Source: a virus
Taxonomy: Duplodnaviria; Caudoviricetes
Length of the DNA: 64,000 nt
Virus record (IMG/VR): IMGVR_UViG_3300020120_000046
Coordinates: 720-64,719 of that record
Direction: 5' to 3' (one strand)
The translations under genes were made by a program, and so were the position numbers. The notes beneath the pieces are model-generated. The model did no database searches. It was not told where the DNA came from and worked only from the letters and a program-made list of their open reading frames with translations. Below are positions 5,472-58,742 of the stretch, piece after piece (position 1 is the stretch's first letter; each line of letters opens with the position of its first letter).

Positions 5472-6410
5472 ATGCCCCCAGCGAGGACCCCAGCATCTAC
5501 CCGTCCCAAGGCCGTCCAGCAGCGCCAGCGGCGGCAGACCGCGAAGCAGGAGGCGGAAGCTCCCCAGATGCTAATGGAGGCGACCGTTGAGATAACGGAA
5601 GTCCCCCTGGCTTATCACCAGCCTCCGGTCAAGATCCTCCTCTATGGCCCGCCCGGAGTCGGCAAAACCCGGCTAGCGGGTGGCGCGCCGCGAGCGGTAT
5701 TCCTCTCGACGGAGATTGAGGGTGCCGTCTCCGCAAAGGTAGCGGGCTCGCAAGCCCGGCTCTGGCCCGCGCCAACGTGGGAGCACGCCGTGGCCGGCGT
5801 CAAGAAGGGAGTCAAAGAGCTAGGCGAGGACGACTGGCTGATCGTGGACTCCGGAACGCGCATGCAGGAAATGTATATGCGCTGGATCCTCAAGACGATC
5901 AACGCCAAGAACCCGGCTCGCGACCTCGACATCCCGGCCATCAAGGACCACCAGAAGTACCAGAACGGATTCAAGCGCTGGGTCGATATGCTTATCGACG
6001 GCCCCATGAACGTCATCTTTATTTGCAACTCGATGAATGCGGAGGACGCGGAAGGCGAACCGCGCGTAATCCCCTTGCTGCTCGGCAAGAAGGGCGAGAT
6101 ATCCGACTACATTTCGGCTCAGTTCGGTATCGCGCTATATTACTCCGTAGCGCGTGAGTCGCGGGAGGCGGATGCGATAGGGCCGGAGATCGTCCGGCGA
6201 GTCCTAGCCCAGCCGTTCCCTCCGTGGTTCGCCAAGGACCGCTATGACGCTCTCGGAGCCTATCAGGACGTAGGCTACAAGGACGACACGGCGATGGCCC
6301 GGATGATTGACGACATCCAGAAAGCCCGGAAGGAAATTGGAAACCTCCCTGACCGTTCTAGCCGACCCAGACGTCCAGCCGGACGGGTGGCTGGTAAAAC
6401 ACGTCGGTAA
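5472..6410 (+). CDS. Sak4-like/AAA_24 RecA-fold ATPase (single-strand annealing)
   Basis: LLYGPPGVGKT Walker A, LIVDS Walker B; lies between an exonuclease and an SSB-like gene. Confidence 0.8.
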   Translation: MPPARTPASTRPKAVQQRQRRQTAKQEAEAPQMLMEATVEITEVPLAYHQPPVKILLYGPPGVGKTRLAGGAPRAVFLSTEIEGAVSAKVAGSQARLWPAPTWEHAVAGVKKGVKELGEDDWLIVDSGTRMQEMYMRWILKTINAKNPARDLDIPAIKDHQKYQNGFKRWVDMLIDGPMNVIFICNSMNAEDAEGEPRVIPLLLGKKGEISDYISAQFGIALYYSVARESREADAIGPEIVRRVLAQPFPPWFAKDRYDALGAYQDVGYKDDTAMARMIDDIQKARKEIGNLPDRSSRPRRPAGRVAGKTRR

Positions 6411-6509
6411 GCGGCATCCGTATCTGCGGTACGTAACGAGAGGAGAGCATGCGGCGGATCATCGGCTCAATCCCGAAAGGCAAGACCACGAACACGAAAG
6501 GCGATAGGA

Positions 6510-7403
6510 ATGCCAAAGCTACGCGATACTGCTGATCTCGACGTTGATGCCCTTGAGGCAGTCGAGTATTCCACTGAGCGCTATTCCGACTACGCGGGCG
6601 AGATCCCGCCCATCGGCCTGGAGCTTTCCGGCTACGTCAAGAAGATCTGGTGGACCCGGAGCGCCAACGACGATCCCATGCTCAAGGTCCTCTGGATCGC
6701 GGACGGAAACGAGGGTGACGCGGAGGAGTACAACGGCTGCCCGTTCTGGCTCAACGCCGCGCTCATCCCTGGCGCCAAGTTCCGCTGGGACCCGTTCCTC
6801 CTCGCGTACGGCCTCACGCTCCTGGAGGTCAAGACCAAAACGTACGTCGCGAAGGAAGAGGACTCCAAGGGATTCATCATCGAACGGATCGGCACCTGGA
6901 AGCCCGGAGCCGACCGGGACGAGGCCTGGTGCCGGATCATCACCGGCCAGGAGCCCTACAACGGCTCCATTCAGGCCATCGCAGAAGAATGGCTCCCCTG
7001 GGATTACGAGCCGGACGATGAGGAGCCGGATGATGTGGAGGACGAGGCCGACCCGGACGAGGACGAGCCAGAGGATGAGGAGCCGGACGAGGACGAGCCG
7101 GACGAGGACGAGGACGATGATGAGGACGAGCCGGACGAGGCTCCGGCCGTAACTCCGGCGCGAGCCCGCAGGGCTTCTGGCCGGGCGGCCGGTAGCGCTC
7201 GCGCTGCCCAGCCCGCTCGCGCCGCTAGGACGGCCTCTAAGCCCGCGAACGCGAAGACCGGGACGCGGACCCGCGCGAGCGCGGCTAAGGCCGCTCCGGC
7301 GCGTACGGCCCGCGCTAGCGCTACCTCCGGCCGGGCGGCCAAGACTCCGGCGCGGTCCACCCGGACTAAAAGGCGCGCAACCGACAACGACCCGCCATTC
7401 TGA
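6510..7403 (+). CDS. ssDNA-binding protein-like (DUF669-type position) with acidic tract and basic tail
   Basis: Follows Sak4-like gene; beta-rich N-domain, EPDE/D-rich tract, Ala/Arg tail, C-terminal DNDPPF resembling SSB tips. Confidence 0.65.
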   Translation: MPKLRDTADLDVDALEAVEYSTERYSDYAGEIPPIGLELSGYVKKIWWTRSANDDPMLKVLWIADGNEGDAEEYNGCPFWLNAALIPGAKFRWDPFLLAYGLTLLEVKTKTYVAKEEDSKGFIIERIGTWKPGADRDEAWCRIITGQEPYNGSIQAIAEEWLPWDYEPDDEEPDDVEDEADPDEDEPEDEEPDEDEPDEDEDDDEDEPDEAPAVTPARARRASGRAAGSARAAQPARAARTASKPANAKTGTRTRASAAKAAPARTARASATSGRAAKTPARSTRTKRRATDNDPPF

Positions 7404-8482: not shown

Positions 8483-9141
8483 GGCCTTTCCGCTCGCGGG
8501 CTGACGCTCCGGTCGTGGCGCTTGACATCGACGGCACGATGGGGAACTATCACGCGCATTTCCTCTGGTTCGCCACCCACTGGTTTGGCCGGGAGTTCCC
8601 GCATCCCGAGGAGGTCAACCCCGGAATCCGGCTCTCCACCTTTATGGGGATTACCCACCGGGAGTACCGTGAGTGTAAGCTCGCCTACCGCCAGGGCGGC
8701 CTGAAGCGGTTTATGCCGGCGTACGAGGGAGCCGACCGGGTAACCCGGAGGATACGGAAGGCCGGAGCGCAGGTCTGGATCTGTACTACCCGGCCGTACC
8801 TCCGGCTAGACAACATTGACCCTGACACTCGCGAGTGGCTACGGCGGAACGGGATTCAGTATGACGCCGTGATCTGGGAAGGGATAGACGAGGACGATCC
8901 GACCAAGTATGCCGACCTCATTAATCAAGTCGGTACTGACCGGATCGTCGCCGTAGTTGAGGACCTCCCGGAGCAGATAGCCGACGCCCACAAGAACGGC
9001 ATTCAGACGGTCTATATGATGGACCAGCCGTATAACCGGGAGCCCGCGACTCCGGACGCATACCGCATTAGGGACCTAGATGAACTGTGGGGTAACCTAG
9101 AGGTAGACCTCAGTATCTGGTACGAGAACCACGGAGGCTAG
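8470..9141 (+). CDS. HAD-superfamily phosphatase (5'-nucleotidase/PNK-phosphatase-like)
   Basis: VVALDIDGT (DxD motif I), ICTTRP (motif II), VVEDLPEQI (motif IV). Confidence 0.8.
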   Translation: MEDVGPFRSRADAPVVALDIDGTMGNYHAHFLWFATHWFGREFPHPEEVNPGIRLSTFMGITHREYRECKLAYRQGGLKRFMPAYEGADRVTRRIRKAGAQVWICTTRPYLRLDNIDPDTREWLRRNGIQYDAVIWEGIDEDDPTKYADLINQVGTDRIVAVVEDLPEQIADAHKNGIQTVYMMDQPYNREPATPDAYRIRDLDELWGNLEVDLSIWYENHGG

Positions 9142-9142
9142 A

Positions 9143-9382
9143 ATGACAATGAAGGCAACGCTCCAGGAGCAAGCTGAGCTAATGGAAGAGGAGATAGCTC
9201 ATCTCCAGGATGAACTCCAAAAGGCTCGCGAGGAGCACGACAAGTTCGTCAACGAGTGCCTGGAGCGAATTCCGGAGAGCTACGACTGCGACGATGCCGG
9301 TGAGGCGATCGTCCTCAAGTTCATAGGGGACATGGATACGCTTGGCGGCCTCATCGCTAAGCTAACCTCTGGATTCCGCTAA
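9143..9382 (+). CDS. coiled-coil hypothetical protein
   Basis: ORF tightly packed between neighbours; heptad-like N-terminus. Confidence 0.55.
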   Translation: MTMKATLQEQAELMEEEIAHLQDELQKAREEHDKFVNECLERIPESYDCDDAGEAIVLKFIGDMDTLGGLIAKLTSGFR

Positions 9383-9386
9383 TCCC

Positions 9387-9578
9387 ATGCCTGCCCATTG
9401 CCCGTCCTGCGGCTCGCCGGAGCCCAGGCTCCATCCGGCCCTAGGTCCGGACGGCGAGGTAACCCGGATCTGCCAGGACAAGTTCCACGATGAGGAGCCA
9501 AGGCTCCGGCTAAGCCCGCACCTTGGCCTTTACCTCCATATACCAAAGAAGGCGAGACTAGACAATGACGAATCATGA
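9387..9578 (+). CDS. small CxxC hypothetical protein
   Basis: CPSC...C...H; packed between neighbours. Confidence 0.5.
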   Translation: MPAHCPSCGSPEPRLHPALGPDGEVTRICQDKFHDEEPRLRLSPHLGLYLHIPKKARLDNDES

Positions 9579-10572
9579 CCCGGAATCCTGCCCGTTCGGC
9601 CACATCGATGGAATGTGCGCCGGAGAGGAACTCCGGCTAACAACCGGCCGTACCGAAAGCAATGCCGAGTTCGATAACTGGCCCCAGGATGAAGCGGCTA
9701 CTGACCTGGTCCGGTGGGCCGACCGGGCGATGTTCCGGGCACAGCCGCTCGCGGAGGACGGCGAGCAGGTTCAGATATCCGTCTCCGTGGTCGATATGAC
9801 CCGGAACCCGCTCAAGGTAATGGCCGCTCCGTGGCTTGGCTACCGGGGACGTTTCGTCCTCCCGGATCAGGTGACGGACGAGGAAGCCCGCGCATTCGCG
9901 GCCGATGCCCTGAAGAGCAAGATTGCGGCCCCACTCGAATGGTGTCAGGTCGCGCTCCTGATCCAGGGAGTCTCCCGCGACTTTACCCATCAGATCGTCC
10001 GGCAGAGGACGGCGACATTCGTTCAGGAGTCGATGCGGTTCGCGGTAAAGGACCGGGCGGCCGACGAGGTACCGGAGCCGATCTCGATAGCCGGGCTCGC
10101 TGAGGATGACCCGCTCGCGAGGATCTGGCACGACCACGTGGCCCGGACCGGATGGGTCTACAACGCTCTCGTCCACGGCGGCATCCCGGCTGAGGACGCG
10201 AGGAAGGGCCTCCTGATCGGGACCACGACCCAGCTCCATTACCGGACGAATCTCCGGGACCTCATTAACCATGCCGGGCTCCGGCTCTGCTCCCAGGCCC
10301 AGGCCGAATGGAAGGAGGTCTGGAAGCTAATCGCCAAGGCCATCGGCAGCTACGGCCCGGAGGAGGACCGCTGGCAGCAGCAGGCGATCGTCAGGCTATT
10401 CAAGCCGGTCTGCTATTCGACCGGGAAATGCGAGTTCATGGGCGAGGCCGACCGCTGGTGCGTAATCCGCGACCGGGTAGAAGCGCATCACCGGAACGGC
10501 GACCGGCCGGAGGACTGGAACGACATCAATCCCCTGGAGCCGCTCCACCCGGAGTCCGCCCGTCGTGCCTGA
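9565..10572 (+). CDS. thyX: flavin-dependent thymidylate synthase (ThyX-like)
   Basis: THQIVRQRTATFVQESMRF (variant RHRx7S motif), NLRDL...LRLCSQAQAEW. Confidence 0.85.
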   Translation: MTNHDPESCPFGHIDGMCAGEELRLTTGRTESNAEFDNWPQDEAATDLVRWADRAMFRAQPLAEDGEQVQISVSVVDMTRNPLKVMAAPWLGYRGRFVLPDQVTDEEARAFAADALKSKIAAPLEWCQVALLIQGVSRDFTHQIVRQRTATFVQESMRFAVKDRAADEVPEPISIAGLAEDDPLARIWHDHVARTGWVYNALVHGGIPAEDARKGLLIGTTTQLHYRTNLRDLINHAGLRLCSQAQAEWKEVWKLIAKAIGSYGPEEDRWQQQAIVRLFKPVCYSTGKCEFMGEADRWCVIRDRVEAHHRNGDRPEDWNDINPLEPLHPESARRA

Positions 10573-52142: not shown

Positions 52143-52691
52143 TTACCGTGGCGCACCGGACTCGCCCCACTCGAACCGGGCCATCCTCGCGGCCTCCAGC
52201 CCGTCCTCAGCCCACGGAGGGAACCCGAACGGGAAGCCCGTGATAAGCTTCTGGGCCATGAACTCCGTAGGCTCTACGGCGACCCTAGGCCGTTGCAGGG
52301 GGCACCCTGGCTCGGACGGGTCCCACGGTACGGCCCAGAGCTGGTTATGGAAGTGAAGCTGAACAGGCCAGAGGATGGACCGGGCGCGCGGGACCTCGCC
52401 CAGGACCACGACATCGTTGCCGGAGCCGCAGGCCGCGAGCGCGGAGGCGATAGCGCAGAGACGCTCAACCGACTCCATATTGAGAATGCCCTTGACCTCT
52501 ACCCACTGGCCGGCCTCCAGCCAGAAGTCCGGGAGGTAATTGTAGCGTCTGCCCGGCGTGTCGATCCGGAAGCCTTCTACCTCATAATGCCACTTTAGTC
52601 CGACCTCGTCAAAGAACACTGCCCAGCGTGCCTCAAGGCGGGACCGGAAACGGTACCCGCCATAACGAGTCTCTATCGCGCTAATAGCCAT
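52143..52691 (-). CDS. PD-(D/E)XK nuclease-family protein
   Basis: ETRY.GYRFRSRLEARWAVFF...W.YE.EGF, YLPDFWL, WVEVKG. Confidence 0.8.
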   Translation of the reverse strand: MAISAIETRYGGYRFRSRLEARWAVFFDEVGLKWHYEVEGFRIDTPGRRYNYLPDFWLEAGQWVEVKGILNMESVERLCAIASALAACGSGNDVVVLGEVPRARSILWPVQLHFHNQLWAVPWDPSEPGCPLQRPRVAVEPTEFMAQKLITGFPFGFPPWAEDGLEAARMARFEWGESGAPR

Positions 52692-52761: not shown

Positions 52762-53286
52762 ATGCCTCAGGACCTAATGGGAAAGATCAAGCACCACATA
52801 AAGCTCGCGGACGAGGCCGAAGGTACGGCCTCTGAGAATAACTGGGCAGCCGCCCGGTATGTCTGGGAGGCCGTCCGGGAAGGAATCGTCCAGAAGGACA
52901 TCGCAGAGGAAACCGGCAAGTCGCAGGCCCATATTACCCGGCTCAAGAAGTGCTGGGAAATCCGCGTCGTCAGCCAGGGCCTCCGGCGTCCGGTCTACGC
53001 AGAGCTAGGCAACTTCTACCAGTTCTACAATTCGCCAGAGGTCCGGGGAGAGCCGTCCGACCGGAGCGGCTCCGGCTCTGGCTCCGGCCGCGACGGCGAC
53101 CGGGACGGCGAGCGTGGCGACTACTCGACAAGCGGCCTCGTATTCCGGGCGCGTTCTGCGGTCGATGCGCTTTACCGGAACCCTGCTCACATCGATTCGA
53201 TTACGGACGAGGACGTGGATGCTCTGCGGGAAATTCAGGGCCGAATCCGCGAAATCCTCCGCCAGCTCCGCTTACGCAGCGTATAG
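52762..53286 (+). CDS. helix-turn-helix DNA-binding protein
   Basis: GIVQKDIAEETGKSQAHITRL HTH. Confidence 0.7.
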   Translation: MPQDLMGKIKHHIKLADEAEGTASENNWAAARYVWEAVREGIVQKDIAEETGKSQAHITRLKKCWEIRVVSQGLRRPVYAELGNFYQFYNSPEVRGEPSDRSGSGSGSGRDGDRDGERGDYSTSGLVFRARSAVDALYRNPAHIDSITDEDVDALREIQGRIREILRQLRLRSV

Positions 53287-53410
53287 CAGCGTAATCGACT
53301 CCGCGTAATCATATCCAATTACTCCGCGTATTCCCGGCCGCTTATGCCGCGAATCCGCTTTATCACCGCCAATTACGCAGCGTATTCTGCCTAGCGCTTT
53401 CCGCGAATAC
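53272..53410. repeat. cluster of short direct repeats (core GCG[TA]A[TA])
   Basis: TTACGCAGCGTAT x2, CAATTAC(T/G)C(C/A)GCGTATTC x2, ACTCCGCGTA x2, CCGCGAAT x2. Confidence 0.7.
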
Positions 53411-53491
53411 GAGCTAGCCTCTCGACTAAGCGGCTCCGGCCGGAGGGTGGGCCTCCGCGCCGGAGCCTAGGAACCTAACGGGAGGCTCCCT

Positions 53492-54406
53492 ATGCCGGAC
53501 TCTAACGCGAAGGCACCGCGTATGGCGAGGCTGAGCCGCTTTATCGCGACCGCCACGAGCCGCTTTATCTGGCTGCTCGTACTCGCTCCTATCCTGGGGC
53601 TTTCCGCGTACAGCCTATACTGGGTCGGCCGCTATTTCGCGGTACCGCCGCTTATCGCGGCAACGATCTCTACCTGCTTTGACGGGGCTGCGCTTAAGTC
53701 GGCCGACTATTCGCTGAAGTACGCGCAGAAGGGCCTAAGCGGTACGCTGCCACGGACCTTTACGCGCATCCTTGCGGTCACCTCAGCTTTCCTCCAGACG
53801 TTTCACGCCCGGCTCGCGGGCGAGCCTCCGGGAGCCTGGATCCTGTGGGCGAGCCTCCCGATCATTGCTACAATCCTCTATGAGATCCATTTGCGTCTGG
53901 AGCGCTACCGGGCTCTGGCCCGGACCGGCAACATTTACCCGGCTCCGCTCCCGCAGTGGGGCCTGGCGTCCTGGTGCCTGTTCCCGTTCCGGACGCTCAA
54001 TGACTTCCGGGAGATCGTCCAGGCCCGGAGTAACGCGCTTAAGCAGGGCGGCCTCACGGTCATTGCGGACTTCACGACGGAGGTTTCCCGGCTCCGGCAT
54101 ACCCGTGAGCGGATTGACGCGCTACCGCGTCCGCAGGCCCCGGAGCGCGAGCAGGAGGCTGATGTAGCGGCTCCGGAGGTTATGGAACAGCACCGCGAGC
54201 GGAGGCGGGAGAGCAAGCCTCCGGCGCGCGAGCGCAAGGCTCCGGCCCGTGGCTCCTGGGCTGAGCGGCATAGCCCGGAGATCCGTATGCGGGAATGGGC
54301 CCTACAGCAGTCGGCCTTCCGCGCTCGCGTGGGCCAGCGTGGCCGGCTCCCGGCCGACATCAAGGAAGCCTATTACGTGGCGTTCCCGGAGGAGAGGCCG
54401 GCATAA
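53492..54406 (+). CDS. DUF2637/SpdA-like multi-TM protein fused to an Lsr2-type DNA-binding domain
   Basis: 4 N-terminal TM segments (LSAYSLYWV, STCFDGAAL); C-terminal IRMREWALQQ...VGQRGRLPADIKEAY. Confidence 0.75.
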   Translation: MPDSNAKAPRMARLSRFIATATSRFIWLLVLAPILGLSAYSLYWVGRYFAVPPLIAATISTCFDGAALKSADYSLKYAQKGLSGTLPRTFTRILAVTSAFLQTFHARLAGEPPGAWILWASLPIIATILYEIHLRLERYRALARTGNIYPAPLPQWGLASWCLFPFRTLNDFREIVQARSNALKQGGLTVIADFTTEVSRLRHTRERIDALPRPQAPEREQEADVAAPEVMEQHRERRRESKPPARERKAPARGSWAERHSPEIRMREWALQQSAFRARVGQRGRLPADIKEAYYVAFPEERPA

Positions 54407-56082
54407 TGATTGGCGAGCTGCTCCGCGCGACCCACGCTCCGGCCTGGGTGGTCTTTGCGGTCGTGTTCGGGCTCTATATCGGTACGGTCGGCTGGTGGCT
54501 CATTAACGGGTATACCCGCGAGCTATTCGGCAGCCCGCTCCCGCATATGGGCCGGATCCATCACGTTGTCTTCAACTTCCATACCGGGCTCCCGGTTAGC
54601 CGCAAGAGCCACGGCGATGAGCGCAAGCTGAAGAAGGCCGCATCCAATTCGCGGGTAGCGACTCCAGACGGCCTTATGGTCTATTTCCATCCGTGGCCGC
54701 GCTGGGCTAGGGCTCTCCGGAATAACCTCATCATTATGACCTGGCTCCTCGCGTCCTGCGGAATGGCCCTTAATCCATCCGCAACGGTCCGGACGATGAC
54801 GCTGCTCTTCCTCGCGCTGATCGTCCTCTGGGTGTGGCGCTTTGTCGCGAGGAAGCGCGCCAAGTTCCTCCAGTCGCATCCCGTCTCGCGTCCGGCCGCA
54901 ACCCGGAGCGCCAAGGCCAAGATCATCCTCAGGAGCGATGACACGACCGTAGGCGAGACGGCGAAGCTTGAGGACGAGACGAGGCCGCAGCTAGAGGGAG
55001 TCCCACAGACGGTCCTCGCTAACCTCCTCGCGCCAAAGATGGGGTGCTCGACGGATGAGCTACTGCGCCGCCTGACGATGACGGCCGACCGGGGAGAGAT
55101 CCGGCTACCGGATTCTTACTCAGCCGTCAAGCGGACCCGCGAGGAAGTAGAGGAGGTCATTGAGGCCCATACGCGCGGCAAGGTCCGGTTCGAGTGGAAG
55201 ACCACTGACACTCCCCGGACGCTCGCCTGGCTTCCTGTGGTTGTGCCGAAGCTCCCGACTACGGTATCAATCCTGGAGTACCTGGACCAGATAGAGAAGC
55301 TAGGCCCGCGCCAGACCGGCCTTGGAGTCCGGGCCGACCGGACAATGTATGTCCAGAGTCACCAGGGCGACCTCCCGTGGTGGTGTGACTTTATGGGCTC
55401 CGGCTGCGGGAAGTCCACCAAGCATCTCGTCAAGGCCGCGCAGATAGCGCACAAGGACCCGCTAGCCCGGATCCACTGCTTTGATACCAAGCAGGTTAGC
55501 TTTGAGGCTCTCCACGGGATTCCGGGGATCTACATCTATGACAACTCCGTCACCGGAATGGAAGAGATCTGGGGCGGGCTCTACTCGCTCGCGAAGCTAG
55601 TTGAGTCCCGGTACACGGCTGTGCGGGAAAAGCGGGCGAGGCTCGCGGACTTCCACGACGAATGGGTTCTTGTCGATGAGGGGAACCATCTAGGCGGCAA
55701 GCTCAAGAACTACTGGGCCAAGACCCTGGGTGAGACCTCCGCGAGCCCGGCCATATGGGCCGACGCCATCGCCCCCATTCTCCAGACCGGCCGACAGGCG
55801 AACGTAATTGGCGAGTGGATGTTCCAGGACCTAACCGACCGGGCGATGGGAGGCCAGTCCCTCAAGTTCGCCTTTAGCGCGTTCTGTGCGGCTGGGTTCC
55901 TCCCGAACCAGTTTGCCCGGACGATTGGGACTCCGGCTGAGGAGTGTATAGAGGGACCGGGTAAGATACTAGTGTGTCAAGGCAATAAGCGGGTCTGGAC
56001 CCAGGGCTTCCACGGTGACGAGCAATGGCTTCACGACTACGCGCTAGAGAACAGGAAGGGCAGGAGTTATGAGGCAGCGTAA
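54406..56082 (+). CDS. FtsK/SpoIIIE (TraB-like) membrane ATPase
   Basis: N-terminal TMs; MGSGCGKST Walker A, FDTKQVS, VLVDEGNH Walker B, QTGRQANV; TAATG-coupled to the upstream gene. Confidence 0.8.
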   Translation: MIGELLRATHAPAWVVFAVVFGLYIGTVGWWLINGYTRELFGSPLPHMGRIHHVVFNFHTGLPVSRKSHGDERKLKKAASNSRVATPDGLMVYFHPWPRWARALRNNLIIMTWLLASCGMALNPSATVRTMTLLFLALIVLWVWRFVARKRAKFLQSHPVSRPAATRSAKAKIILRSDDTTVGETAKLEDETRPQLEGVPQTVLANLLAPKMGCSTDELLRRLTMTADRGEIRLPDSYSAVKRTREEVEEVIEAHTRGKVRFEWKTTDTPRTLAWLPVVVPKLPTTVSILEYLDQIEKLGPRQTGLGVRADRTMYVQSHQGDLPWWCDFMGSGCGKSTKHLVKAAQIAHKDPLARIHCFDTKQVSFEALHGIPGIYIYDNSVTGMEEIWGGLYSLAKLVESRYTAVREKRARLADFHDEWVLVDEGNHLGGKLKNYWAKTLGETSASPAIWADAIAPILQTGRQANVIGEWMFQDLTDRAMGGQSLKFAFSAFCAAGFLPNQFARTIGTPAEECIEGPGKILVCQGNKRVWTQGFHGDEQWLHDYALENRKGRSYEAA

Positions 56083-56497
56083 GGAAAGGGACACGTGGAC
56101 CAAGCGCTACGGCGACTGGTGCCGGAGGCAGGGCCGGACGGCCCAGTGCTCTCCGGCCCTGGGGGTCCTCGGGATGATCGTCGTATTCGCGGGAGTGATC
56201 TACGTTTACCGTCAGATCATCCTGACGACGATCATGACCGCCGTCCTCGCCGCGCTGGGCGTGGCGCTCATGGTCGGAGCCGTCGCGCTCACGGTCAACA
56301 CGATCCGCTGGTACCGGAAGCGCGAGCGCGCCATGGCCCTGGACCCGTCCGCGTCTGCGGCCCTGGACTACCTCCCGGACCGGGACCTGGACCGGGAGAC
56401 TCTCAGGCGGGAAGTCGACTGGCTAGCCGATGCAGGTTCGGAACTGGTTTTCGACAGCGACGGCAATCTGCACGCCAAGCACGGAACTGATTCCTGA
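56069..56497 (+). CDS. 2-TM membrane protein (Spd-like?)
   Basis: Two long hydrophobic segments; overlaps the ATPase stop. Confidence 0.65.
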   Translation: MRQRKERDTWTKRYGDWCRRQGRTAQCSPALGVLGMIVVFAGVIYVYRQIILTTIMTAVLAALGVALMVGAVALTVNTIRWYRKRERAMALDPSASAALDYLPDRDLDRETLRREVDWLADAGSELVFDSDGNLHAKHGTDS

Positions 56498-56736
56498 TGA
56501 TCCGGCTGGCTCTCGTCCTTGGGCTCCTGGCCGTACCGGCCGGGCATCAGATCGTGAGCCACCGGGTCCTCGCCAGGACGCTCCGGGCCGTGACACCGCT
56601 CCACGGCCCGGAGCCCGCTCCTACCGCCCACGAGCTAGCCCACCGGGCGCGGAGCCGGAGGCTCCGGCTCCTGGCCGACTCCGGCTGGCTCGCTTACCTC
56701 GCGGGTGTCCTCGTCCTCGCGCTGATCCTGCGCTAG
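56497..56736 (+). CDS. small membrane protein
   Basis: TGATG coupling; hydrophobic termini. Confidence 0.6.
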   Translation: MIRLALVLGLLAVPAGHQIVSHRVLARTLRAVTPLHGPEPAPTAHELAHRARSRRLRLLADSGWLAYLAGVLVLALILR

Positions 56737-56765
56737 CCAGATTTTGTCGAAAACAATTTAGACTT

Positions 56766-56857
56766 CAAAGTTTCTCAAACTTTTTCTGGCAAACCGTTCG
56801 CTCCGGCCCTGGCATCGGGTAGAGTTGCCCTAGGCGAACGAGAGAAGCGAGAAAATG
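56766..56857 (+). promoter_or_regulatory. early promoter cassette
   Basis: CAAAGTTTCTCAAACTTTTTCTGGCAAACCGTTC; GGG-TAGAGT 56820-56825; TAGGCGAACGAGAG leader. Confidence 0.75.
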
Positions 56858-57606: not shown

Positions 57607-57698
57607 CAAAGTTTCTCAAAGTTTTTCTGGGAAACCGTTCCGTTCGCGCGGTTCACAGGGTAGGCTTGCCGTAGGCGAGCGAGAGGAACGGGAAGATG
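57607..57698 (+). promoter_or_regulatory. early promoter cassette
   Basis: CAAAGTTTCTCAAAGTTTTTCTGGGAAACCGTTC (2 mismatches vs 56766); GGG-TAGGCT 57661-57666. Confidence 0.75.
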
Positions 57699-57818
57699 AA
57701 GGAAAGCCCGGAAGCGATTGAGCTTTCGCCGGAGGAGCTTGAGGCGGCGCGTGAGCTTGCGGCCGCGATCGGTGCTCCGGTCCTCGTCCTTGAGGTTACC
57801 TCCGTTGAGGTAGTCTAG
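57696..57818 (+). CDS. small acidic protein (40 aa)
   Basis: Directly downstream of a cassette; MKESPEAIELSPEELEAARE... Confidence 0.55.
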   Translation: MKESPEAIELSPEELEAARELAAAIGAPVLVLEVTSVEVV

Positions 57819-58194: not shown

Positions 58195-58306
58195 CTCAAA
58201 CTTTTTCCACGAAAGTTCAAGATTCTGGCAACTTTTGTCTTCTTTTGCCTCAAACCTCGGGTACGATTGCCGTAGGCGAACGAACGAGGTAGGCGAGGAC
58301 GAGATG
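58195..58306 (+). promoter_or_regulatory. early promoter cassette
   Basis: CAAACTTTTTCC...CAAGATTCTGGCAAC; CCTCGGG-TACGAT 58262-58267. Confidence 0.7.
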
Positions 58307-58654: not shown

Positions 58655-58742
58655 AACTTATCAAACTTTTTCTGGCAAACCGGAAGGTTCCGGCCTCCGG
58701 TGGCGTTATACTTGACGTAGGCGAACGAGCGAACGAGAGATG
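58654..58742 (+). promoter_or_regulatory. early promoter cassette
   Basis: AAACTTATCAAACTTTTTCTGGCAAACC; TATACT 58707-58712; TAGGCGAACGAGCGAACGAG. Confidence 0.75.

Follow-up and report, generated by a model that had tools for sequence, protein, structure and literature searches.

Organization of the locus

The DNA analyzed here (the window) is a 64,000-nucleotide stretch of a tailed-phage genome, positions 720 to 64,719 of IMG/VR virus record IMGVR_UViG_3300020120_000046. The element of interest is a block at 52762-56736 that is filled exactly by five open reading frames (ORFs) on the + strand (Table 1). Its two largest products are a membrane-anchored ATPase with the fold of FtsK and a four-helix membrane protein with a C-terminal Lsr2-type domain. 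A gene for a probable helix-turn-helix (HTH) protein precedes them, and two genes for small membrane proteins come after. Translational coupling links the last four genes: the membrane protein gene and the ATPase gene share a TAATG stop/start overlap (54404-54408), the gene for the 142-residue protein overlaps the end of the ATPase gene by 14 nucleotides, and the genes for the 142- and 79-residue proteins overlap at TGATG (56495-56499). The ATPase starts at the ATG at 54406 (558 residues) and not at 54295; the lengths of its 49 close homologues, about 555 residues, and their alignment agree with that start.

Table 1. Features of the block, with the basis for each assignment.
Feature	Coordinates	Strand	Basis
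Probable HTH DNA-binding protein, 174 residues, first gene of the block	52762..53286	+	ORF, weak profile matches
Array of a 9-bp motif, 7 same-orientation copies	53247..53412	+	Motif count
Strong GC-rich hairpin, directly 5' of the ribosome-binding site of the membrane protein gene	53432..53467	+	RNA fold
SpdB/DUF2637-type four-helix membrane protein with C-terminal Lsr2 domain, 304 residues	53492..54406	+	AlphaFold2 model, profiles
Membrane-anchored FtsK-fold P-loop ATPase, 558 residues	54406..56082	+	AlphaFold2 model, Foldseek, VIA
Small membrane protein, 142 residues (g142)	56069..56497	+	Hydropathy, homologues
Small protein with two hydrophobic segments, 79 residues (g79)	56497..56736	+	Hydropathy

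The ATPase has the fold of FtsK and lacks a C-terminal DNA-recognition domain

Sequence profiles detect little in the ATPase. The Pfam model FtsK_SpoIIIE (PF01580) scores 13.4 bits (E = 0.052) against a cut-off of 24, PHROGs and NCBIfam have no family for the ATPase or for the two small proteins, and sequence and profile searches of the PDB with the ATPase gave no significant match. The AlphaFold2 (AF2) model (pLDDT 82.7) contains an alpha-like and a RecA-like domain. Foldseek matches this model to the FtsK motor with E = 5e-12, and VIA aligns 339 residues with FtsK at Z = 26.9, spanning model residues 186-559. Other VIA matches are TcpA (Z = 25.4), EccC (Z = 24.8) and HerA, VirB4 and TrwB (Z = 15-17); the matches to FtsK and TcpA include the alpha-like domain, model residues 186-280. 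Sites that are invariant among 13-31 aligned relatives include G335 and K336 of Walker A, E425 and N427 of Walker B, R463 and Q474 (numbering of the 558-residue protein). The N-terminus has hydrophobic helices at approximately residues 15-33, 104-126 and 130-148. The first-pass annotation, made from the sequence alone, had described an FtsK/SpoIIIE-type ATPase with N-terminal transmembrane (TM) helices, and the structure searches and hydropathy bear this out, although the Pfam score stays below its threshold.

The chain stops 8 residues past the last core helix, and a C-terminal gamma or winged-helix DNA-recognition domain is absent, in agreement with the earlier observation that the protein ends without a winged helix. 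The Tra protein of pIJ101 has a MarR-like segment at residues 594-631.

Between hydrophobic helices 1 and 2 lies a conserved, probably extracytoplasmic loop (54530-54710, approximately residues 44-100) in which H, G and D positions are invariant and an 'ATPEG'-like motif occurs. The consensus of the wider family has a counterpart motif.

The membrane protein joins a probable SpdB/DUF2637 domain to an Lsr2-type domain

The AF2 model of the membrane protein (pLDDT 75.8) has helices at residues 9-48, 53-79, 85-108 and 115-144, which form a four-TM domain and confirm the topology first proposed. The chain continues as one long cytoplasmic helix and a disordered linker and ends in a helix-loop-helix at residues 262-297. 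A Foldseek search of the PDB with this model returned nothing at E ≤ 0.001. The N-terminal domain matches phrog_10376 (E = 1e-28), and hhalign aligns the protein with SpdB of pIJ101 (89.5%, E = 2e-6) and weakly with the DUF2637 proteins of plasmids pPR2 and p7. The Pfam DUF2637 score is 15.5 bits against a cut-off of 22.8, but relatives of the protein exceed that cut-off, among them gp31 of phage Wofford (31% identical, 30.4 bits). Searches with tblastn match it to DUF2637 proteins in 90 cultured Streptomyces phages and in the satellite MiniFlayer. The protein has 52 homologues, many of which carry PF10935 and/or PF23359 in precomputed annotation, and some of which carry PF27080.

The C-terminal 60 residues match the solved Lsr2 DNA-binding domains 2KNG, 6QKP and 6QKQ with E values of 0.0017-0.0036 (0.0017 for 2KNG). 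The RGR motif (QRGRLP) is aligned in this match, with TRGRIPADVIDAY opposite QRGRLPADIKEAY of 2KNG. Pfam Lsr2_DNA-bd covers residues 267-295 with E = 8e-4, which is under its cut-off, and the Lsr2 match of phrog_1223 spans residues 233-298. The Lsr2 matches are C-terminal only; there is no N-terminal Lsr2 oligomerization domain, and the N-terminus is the four-helix membrane domain. The Lsr2-type motif noted in the first-pass annotation at the end of this protein stands through its matches to solved domains, and the alignment with pIJ101 SpdB suggests homology to DUF2637; both Pfam scores are subthreshold. From sequence and model together, the protein is probably an SpdB/DUF2637 relative whose flexible cytoplasmic tail bears a predicted DNA-binding domain of the Lsr2 type (minor-groove, RGR).

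Other DUF2637-type proteins carry interchangeable small C-terminal domains (loci L014, 4947-5816; L015, 14392-15336; L002, which is pPR2, 5990-7051; and L035, 2044-2892). The end is of the Lsr2 type in the phage, helix-rich with 'GVTIT' in pPR2 and L035, and helix-rich of another kind in Wofford gp31 and MiniFlayer gp19. Comparison of these sequences suggests that DUF2637 proteins may follow a general design of membrane anchor plus DNA-binding tail.

The ATPase belongs to a largely unannotated family found on Streptomyces plasmids

Beyond the 49 close homologues of the ATPase, a profile search of 1.84 billion representatives identified 658 relatives in a wider family. PF01580 is found at E ≤ 1e-3 in 20 of 63 sampled members; the family is nearly invisible to Pfam and is unannotated. 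Streptomyces is the source of 39 of the 41 plasmid records matched, and hhalign relates the phage ATPase to its plasmid relatives at 99.7% (E = 2.6e-26). The nearest relatives outside phages are in small plasmids. In NZ_CP108050, an 18-kb plasmid of Streptomyces, and in Planobispora plasmid pPR2, no other FtsK-like gene is present; the family member adjoins a gene annotated 'conjugal transfer protein' in the first, and in the second a DUF2637 gene lies just upstream. Comparison ruled out the 369-residue 'conjugal transfer protein' of the 18-kb plasmid as a DUF2637 relative. Megablast and tblastn searches of cultured phages with the module or the ATPase gave no match, a scan of GTDB genomes with the profile of the phage clade found no relative, and single-protein scans of viral contigs found nothing. 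Alignments of the wider family are too divergent for pattern scans.

The pPR2 ATPase (locus L002/W04, 8559-10321) occupies two consecutive frames, which match the profile at 17-397 and then 369-564 with a TGA between them. It is annotated as two genes and is either split or frameshifted.

The first-pass annotation had labeled the ATPase TraB/FtsK. In hhalign comparisons the E values are 1e-4 with pIJ101 Tra and 1.4e-5 with TraB of plasmid p7, versus 4e-12 with E. coli FtsK. Phylogenetic reconstruction by maximum likelihood (76 rows) places FtsK (2 rows), TraB (4 rows) and the ATPase family (70 rows) on three deep branches, which, with a root set by two FtsK sequences only, cannot be polarized without further outgroups. 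The phylogeny sets the family apart as a well supported branch (Shimodaira-Hasegawa-like approximate likelihood ratio test, SH-aLRT, 100) and cannot place it nearer to TraB or to FtsK, and membership of the ATPase in the canonical TraB clade is not demonstrable from these sequences.

Tail-less ATPases in readable contexts have DUF2637 or Lsr2 genes upstream

Most sampled members of the family are longer than the phage protein: 48 of 63 run 64-214 residues past the point at which the phage ATPase ends. The consensus of this tail is L..AA..lG...afRkaR.R..FPg..G..p.Yt...L.aW (family members P0118-P0249). No Pfam model matches it at E ≤ 1, and it shows no likeness to the C-termini of TraB or to FtsK gamma; a likeness to excisionase/MerR-type HTH domains was seen by eye only. 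In the maximum likelihood tree the tail-less proteins form a clade of 15 rows (nine, plus the six-row phage clade; SH-aLRT 99) that is nested among tail-bearing proteins.

In all four tail-less lineages with readable context, a gene with a DUF2637 domain, an Lsr2 domain or both lies directly upstream of the ATPase. In the phage clade this gene encodes both domains. Upstream of P0117 (26% identical) is a 253-residue DUF2637 and Lsr2_DNA-bd protein, and a gene for a 140-residue protein follows the ATPase. The 282-residue protein upstream of P0132 matches the phage membrane domain (hhalign, 99.8%) and has a different small C-terminal domain, and the gene upstream of P0105 has an Lsr2 domain. Besides the phage clade, two of the other three lineages thus have an Lsr2-type domain on the partner. 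Because such a gene stands upstream of the tail-less ATPase in every readable context, four in number, the arrangement supports recognition of DNA in trans by the partner protein, as the first-pass annotation had proposed for the TM-Lsr2 protein. The contexts speak for that proposal; the root of the tree, set by two FtsK sequences only, limits it.

Two further candidates for DUF2637 relatives were discarded. The 342-residue gene product upstream of P0118 was ruled out by comparison, and a partial 167-residue gene after P0136, DUF2637-like by eye, was dropped since Pfam gives nothing for it.

The phage and its probable host

The source record is 64,719 bp long, has direct terminal repeats and is rated complete by CheckV; the window covers nearly all of it. 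Genes in the window encode a tape-measure protein, portal, large terminase, major head protein, DnaE-type polymerase, primase and helicase, and proteins of the window match those of phages of Actinomycetota only, at identities of 45% or less. Its GC content is 62%. A search of the phage for a tyrosine integrase, a serine recombinase (resolvase) and ParA found none, and the phage therefore looks virulent. A soil actinomycete is suggested as the host, and a mycelial one because the relatives are biased to Streptomyces. A search of sequencing runs located near-identical DNA in soil and rhizosphere metagenomes from several studies, and listed no RNA runs. The module lies in the early-gene region.

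Comparison with known systems

SpdB2 of plasmid pSVH1 is a four-TM oligomer that binds double-stranded DNA non-specifically, forms pores, co-purifies with TraB and is required for intramycelial spread (Thoma et al., PMC4447253). The phage module resembles this TraB-SpdB2 apparatus (pSVH1, pIJ101) in its FtsK-like membrane ATPase, its four-TM SpdB/DUF2637-type protein, which hhalign aligns with SpdB, its small membrane proteins, its translational coupling and its regulator gene with repeats upstream. In both, an spd-type gene lies in the same operon, and that of the module overlaps the ATPase start. Plasmids p7 and NBC_00138 have an FtsK-like Tra gene, a small gene and a DUF2637 gene, which lies two genes after Tra, and pIJ101 likewise carries a Tra/Spd gene set. 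The module differs in its reversed gene order, with the Spd-like gene first, and in its location on a virulent-looking phage. Its ATPase is only remotely similar to the TraB proteins of pIJ101 and p7 and lacks the C-terminal winged helix with which TraB reads clt; an Lsr2 domain is found on the membrane partner instead.

The ATPases of small plasmids (NZ_CP108050, Planobispora pPR2 and 'pRL2-11') belong to the same protein family as the module ATPase but extend further at both termini, and the added sequence includes the conserved tail. FtsK/SpoIIIE provides the best match both by profile and by structure, the latter over the alpha and beta motor domains. Unlike FtsK/SpoIIIE, the module ATPase has no gamma domain, has a different N-terminal membrane part, is borne by a phage and is paired with a DUF2637-Lsr2 protein.

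Among phages, SpdB2 homologues occur in actinophages phiC31 and VWB, for which Thoma et al. offered, as speculation, a part in the spread of phage DNA (PMC4447253). These proteins, and those of cluster BE phages (e.g., Wofford gp31) and of MiniFlayer (gp19), have the same N-terminal membrane domain as the module protein, but the C-terminal domains of Wofford gp31 and MiniFlayer gp19 are not Lsr2. No FtsK-like ATPase was found in the two genomes checked, Wofford and MiniFlayer. Several Streptomyces phage genome papers list FtsK-like genes without study. Conjugal transfer of the plasmid-phage pZL12 is cited as requiring a tra gene (Zhong et al. 2010, cited in PMC3583192); by that description, pZL12/phage ZL12 is similar to the present phage in being a tailed-phage genome with a transfer-type gene. 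Unlike pZL12, which that citation presents as a plasmid prophage, the present phage has no maintenance or integration genes that could be found. Cluster J mycobacteriophages encode Ku-Lsr2 fusions with the Lsr2 C-terminal RGR domain (PMC8612146), which likewise graft this domain onto an unrelated DNA-handling protein, but the carrier protein and function differ, being end joining in Ku-Lsr2. The same survey of phage Lsr2 proteins mentions no membrane or FtsK-linked Lsr2 fusions (PMC8612146).

Actinophage SpdB2 homologues, with the same speculation about spread (PMC4447253), and a plasmid-phage tra gene (pZL12) are therefore already in print. The novelty lies in three features found together: the phage has no lysogeny genes, the ATPase comes from a tail-less branch, invisible to Pfam, of an FtsK-like family that is itself unannotated, and the partner joins DUF2637 to Lsr2.

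Possible functions of the module

By analogy with the plasmid systems, we tentatively propose, as a possibility that falls short of probable, that the block is a plasmid-derived, membrane-embedded machine for double-stranded DNA that moves phage DNA to neighboring hyphal compartments or cells, with DNA recognition in trans. The ATPase would assemble at the membrane into a ring-shaped pump, like FtsK and TraB. Relatively AT-rich DNA, for example that of the phage itself, would be caught by the partner's Lsr2 domain and passed to the pump, so that recognition supplied in trans would replace the pairing of clt with a winged helix. The complex would then move phage DNA across the membrane or a septal cross-wall into neighboring compartments or cells, a movement modeled on that of plasmids by the TraB-Spd apparatus. 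That DNA spreads between cells or across septa we infer purely from this analogy. The fullest form of the proposal, in which the genome of a phage that lacks lysogeny genes would travel through the mycelium free of virions and a membrane-anchored Lsr2 domain selects DNA by AT-richness and not by clt, is doubtful.

Several observations weigh against the proposed transfer machine. By profile score the ATPase lies closer to chromosomal FtsK than to the canonical TraB proteins of plasmids that were compared, TcpA and EccC match the ATPase core in VIA almost as well as FtsK does, and the direction of tail loss depends on a root placed with two FtsK sequences only. Because no integrase, resolvase or ParA was found, the phage is likely to kill its cell, and what it would gain by spreading without particles is less obvious than it would be for a plasmid-prophage. 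In addition, DUF2637 proteins are present in 90 Streptomyces phages and MiniFlayer, and since Wofford and MiniFlayer have such a protein without an FtsK-like ATPase, the DUF2637 membrane protein has a role in phages that is independent of a phage pump.

These last genomes also fit a general role for the protein with DNA at the membrane, and hence a machine that handles DNA within one cell without transfer between cells, a reading we consider rather unlikely. Such a machine could hold phage DNA at the membrane during replication or packaging, draw in the remainder of the genome after a first step of injection, or move or clear host DNA. The location of the module in the early-gene region of a virulent-looking phage agrees with it, as do the conserved neighboring gene for a Holliday-junction-resolvase-like endonuclease and the binding of AT-rich DNA by Lsr2 domains, the GC content of the phage being probably below that of its host. 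An energy-driven, membrane-anchored FtsK-type ring nevertheless exceeds the needs of tethering, and the nearest non-phage relatives are in plasmid transfer contexts beside 'conjugal transfer protein' genes. A device for competition, by superinfection exclusion or by blocking or hijacking the transfer of a conjugative plasmid or an actinomycete integrative and conjugative element in the infected hypha, is improbable. Early phage membrane proteins do often exclude rivals, components that share homology with the transfer proteins of plasmids could poison these or compete with them, and the small membrane proteins are confined to the phage family. Exclusion, however, rarely requires a conserved 558-residue ATPase with catalytic motifs intact across 39-100% identity, and the recurrence of the in-trans DNA-binding layout in distant lineages points to a DNA substrate and not to a simple blocker.

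The structural near-ties raise two further alternatives. The similarity of EccC/EssC domains to the ATPase core, close to that of FtsK (Z = 24.8 versus 26.9), would suit an ATPase that drives protein export as in type VII secretion, the small membrane proteins serving as cargo or as pieces of the channel. This is very unlikely, given that the protein has one ATPase domain and not three, that the block showed no EccB/D/E or WXG genes, that the FtsK and TcpA matches extend over the alpha-like domain, and that the obligate neighbor is a predicted DNA-binding protein. Least likely of all, and only marginally credible, is a role in single-strand conjugation as a TcpA-like type IV coupling protein. 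The structural match to TcpA of pCW3 is nearly tied, and one large plasmid relative lies beside a TcpC-like gene and a further ATPase, but no VirB4-type ATPase or type IV secretion channel gene was seen in the module or in the large genes scanned; relaxases were not specifically searched for.

Little is understood of how phage infection moves through compartmented hyphae. Should the proposed transfer of phage DNA between compartments be correct, the growth and containment of plaques in Streptomyces-like bacteria would rely on a conjugation-type pump in addition to virions. The pairing of a tail-less pump with a DUF2637 partner that bears a DNA-binding domain would also be a natural experiment in how FtsK-type motors obtain DNA specificity, and annotation of the ATPase family and its conserved tail would improve that of plasmids and phages in Actinomycetota.

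The small membrane proteins and conservation of the module

The first-pass annotation of two small membrane proteins after the ATPase was upheld by hydrophobic segments in each. Hydropathy of the 142-residue protein shows two segments at a threshold of 1.6, which merge into one peak in another scan, and that of the 79-residue protein shows two. The 142-residue protein begins with two cysteines 7-8 residues apart, followed by a hydrophobic two-helix hairpin (56069-56200; L004, 11662-11760; L009, 3058-3150). Its 24 homologues are all within the phage family, and its profile finds genes in the same position in L004 (E = 4e-43) and L003 (E = 4e-14). A gene for about 76-80 residues takes the place of the 79-residue gene in L004, L005 and an NCBI contig; it is longer in L003. 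The module is kept in phage genomes of approximately 62-67 kb down to an ATPase identity of 39%.

The 134-residue gene product after the distant ATPase P0118 has a similar layout, with N-terminal cysteines 2-3 residues apart. L005 (JGI, 133,532 bp, which carries P0028) is almost exactly twice the length of L004 (66,874 bp) with identical gene order, and from this comparison is probably an assembled concatemer of a terminally redundant genome.

Regulatory features and flanking genes

The coupled genes, the position of the first gene and the repeat cluster all agree with the five-gene arrangement originally described, but the identity of the HTH protein is weak: its best matches are phrog_6831 'transcriptional regulator' (E = 6e-4), Trp_repressor (E = 0.015) and MarR-type chains (E of about 1). 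Related phages have a gene for about 180-187 residues in its place. The 9-mer [CG][CA]GCG[TA]A[AT][TA] occurs 11 times on the + strand of the window, and seven of these copies lie within 53247-53409; none of the nine reverse-strand copies does. The motif is CCGCGTAAT-like and is embedded in longer, TTACGCAGCGTAT-like units of approximately 17 bp. The array extends from the 3' end of the HTH gene into the intergenic region, and the GC content there is 53%, versus 62% for the window. Related but altered, ATTACTGCGAGTAT-type repeats occur at the equivalent place in L004, whose ATPase is 55% identical, a change that would look like a protein-binding array co-evolving with its binder. Most likely the HTH protein and the repeats regulate the operon.

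The segment 53425-53475 folds with -34.5 kcal/mol into a hairpin with a 15-bp stem, and the arms, GGCTCCGGC and GCCGGAGCC, are kept in L004. A scan for promoter and terminator consensus sequences gave matches at chance level. A repeated promoter/leader cassette, CAAAGTTTCTCAAA.TTTTTCTGG.AAACCGTTC ... GGGTAG..TTGCC.TAGGCGA.CGAGAG ... ATG, precedes successive early genes (56760-56857, 57607-57700, 58195-58240, 58661-58730 and further), and a GGAGCC/GGCTCC hairpin similar to that of the operon is often found 5' of it. Because this cassette is absent between the HTH gene and the membrane protein gene, the five genes may be transcribed as a single unit that contains an internal hairpin.

Upstream of the block, on the - strand, is a divergent gene for an endonuclease I or Holliday-junction-resolvase-like protein (52143-52691; Phage_endo_I, E = 2e-7; phrog_21138, E = 2e-32), which adjoins the module in related phages too. 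At the distant locus L035, an Endonuclease_7 gene is in the equivalent position.

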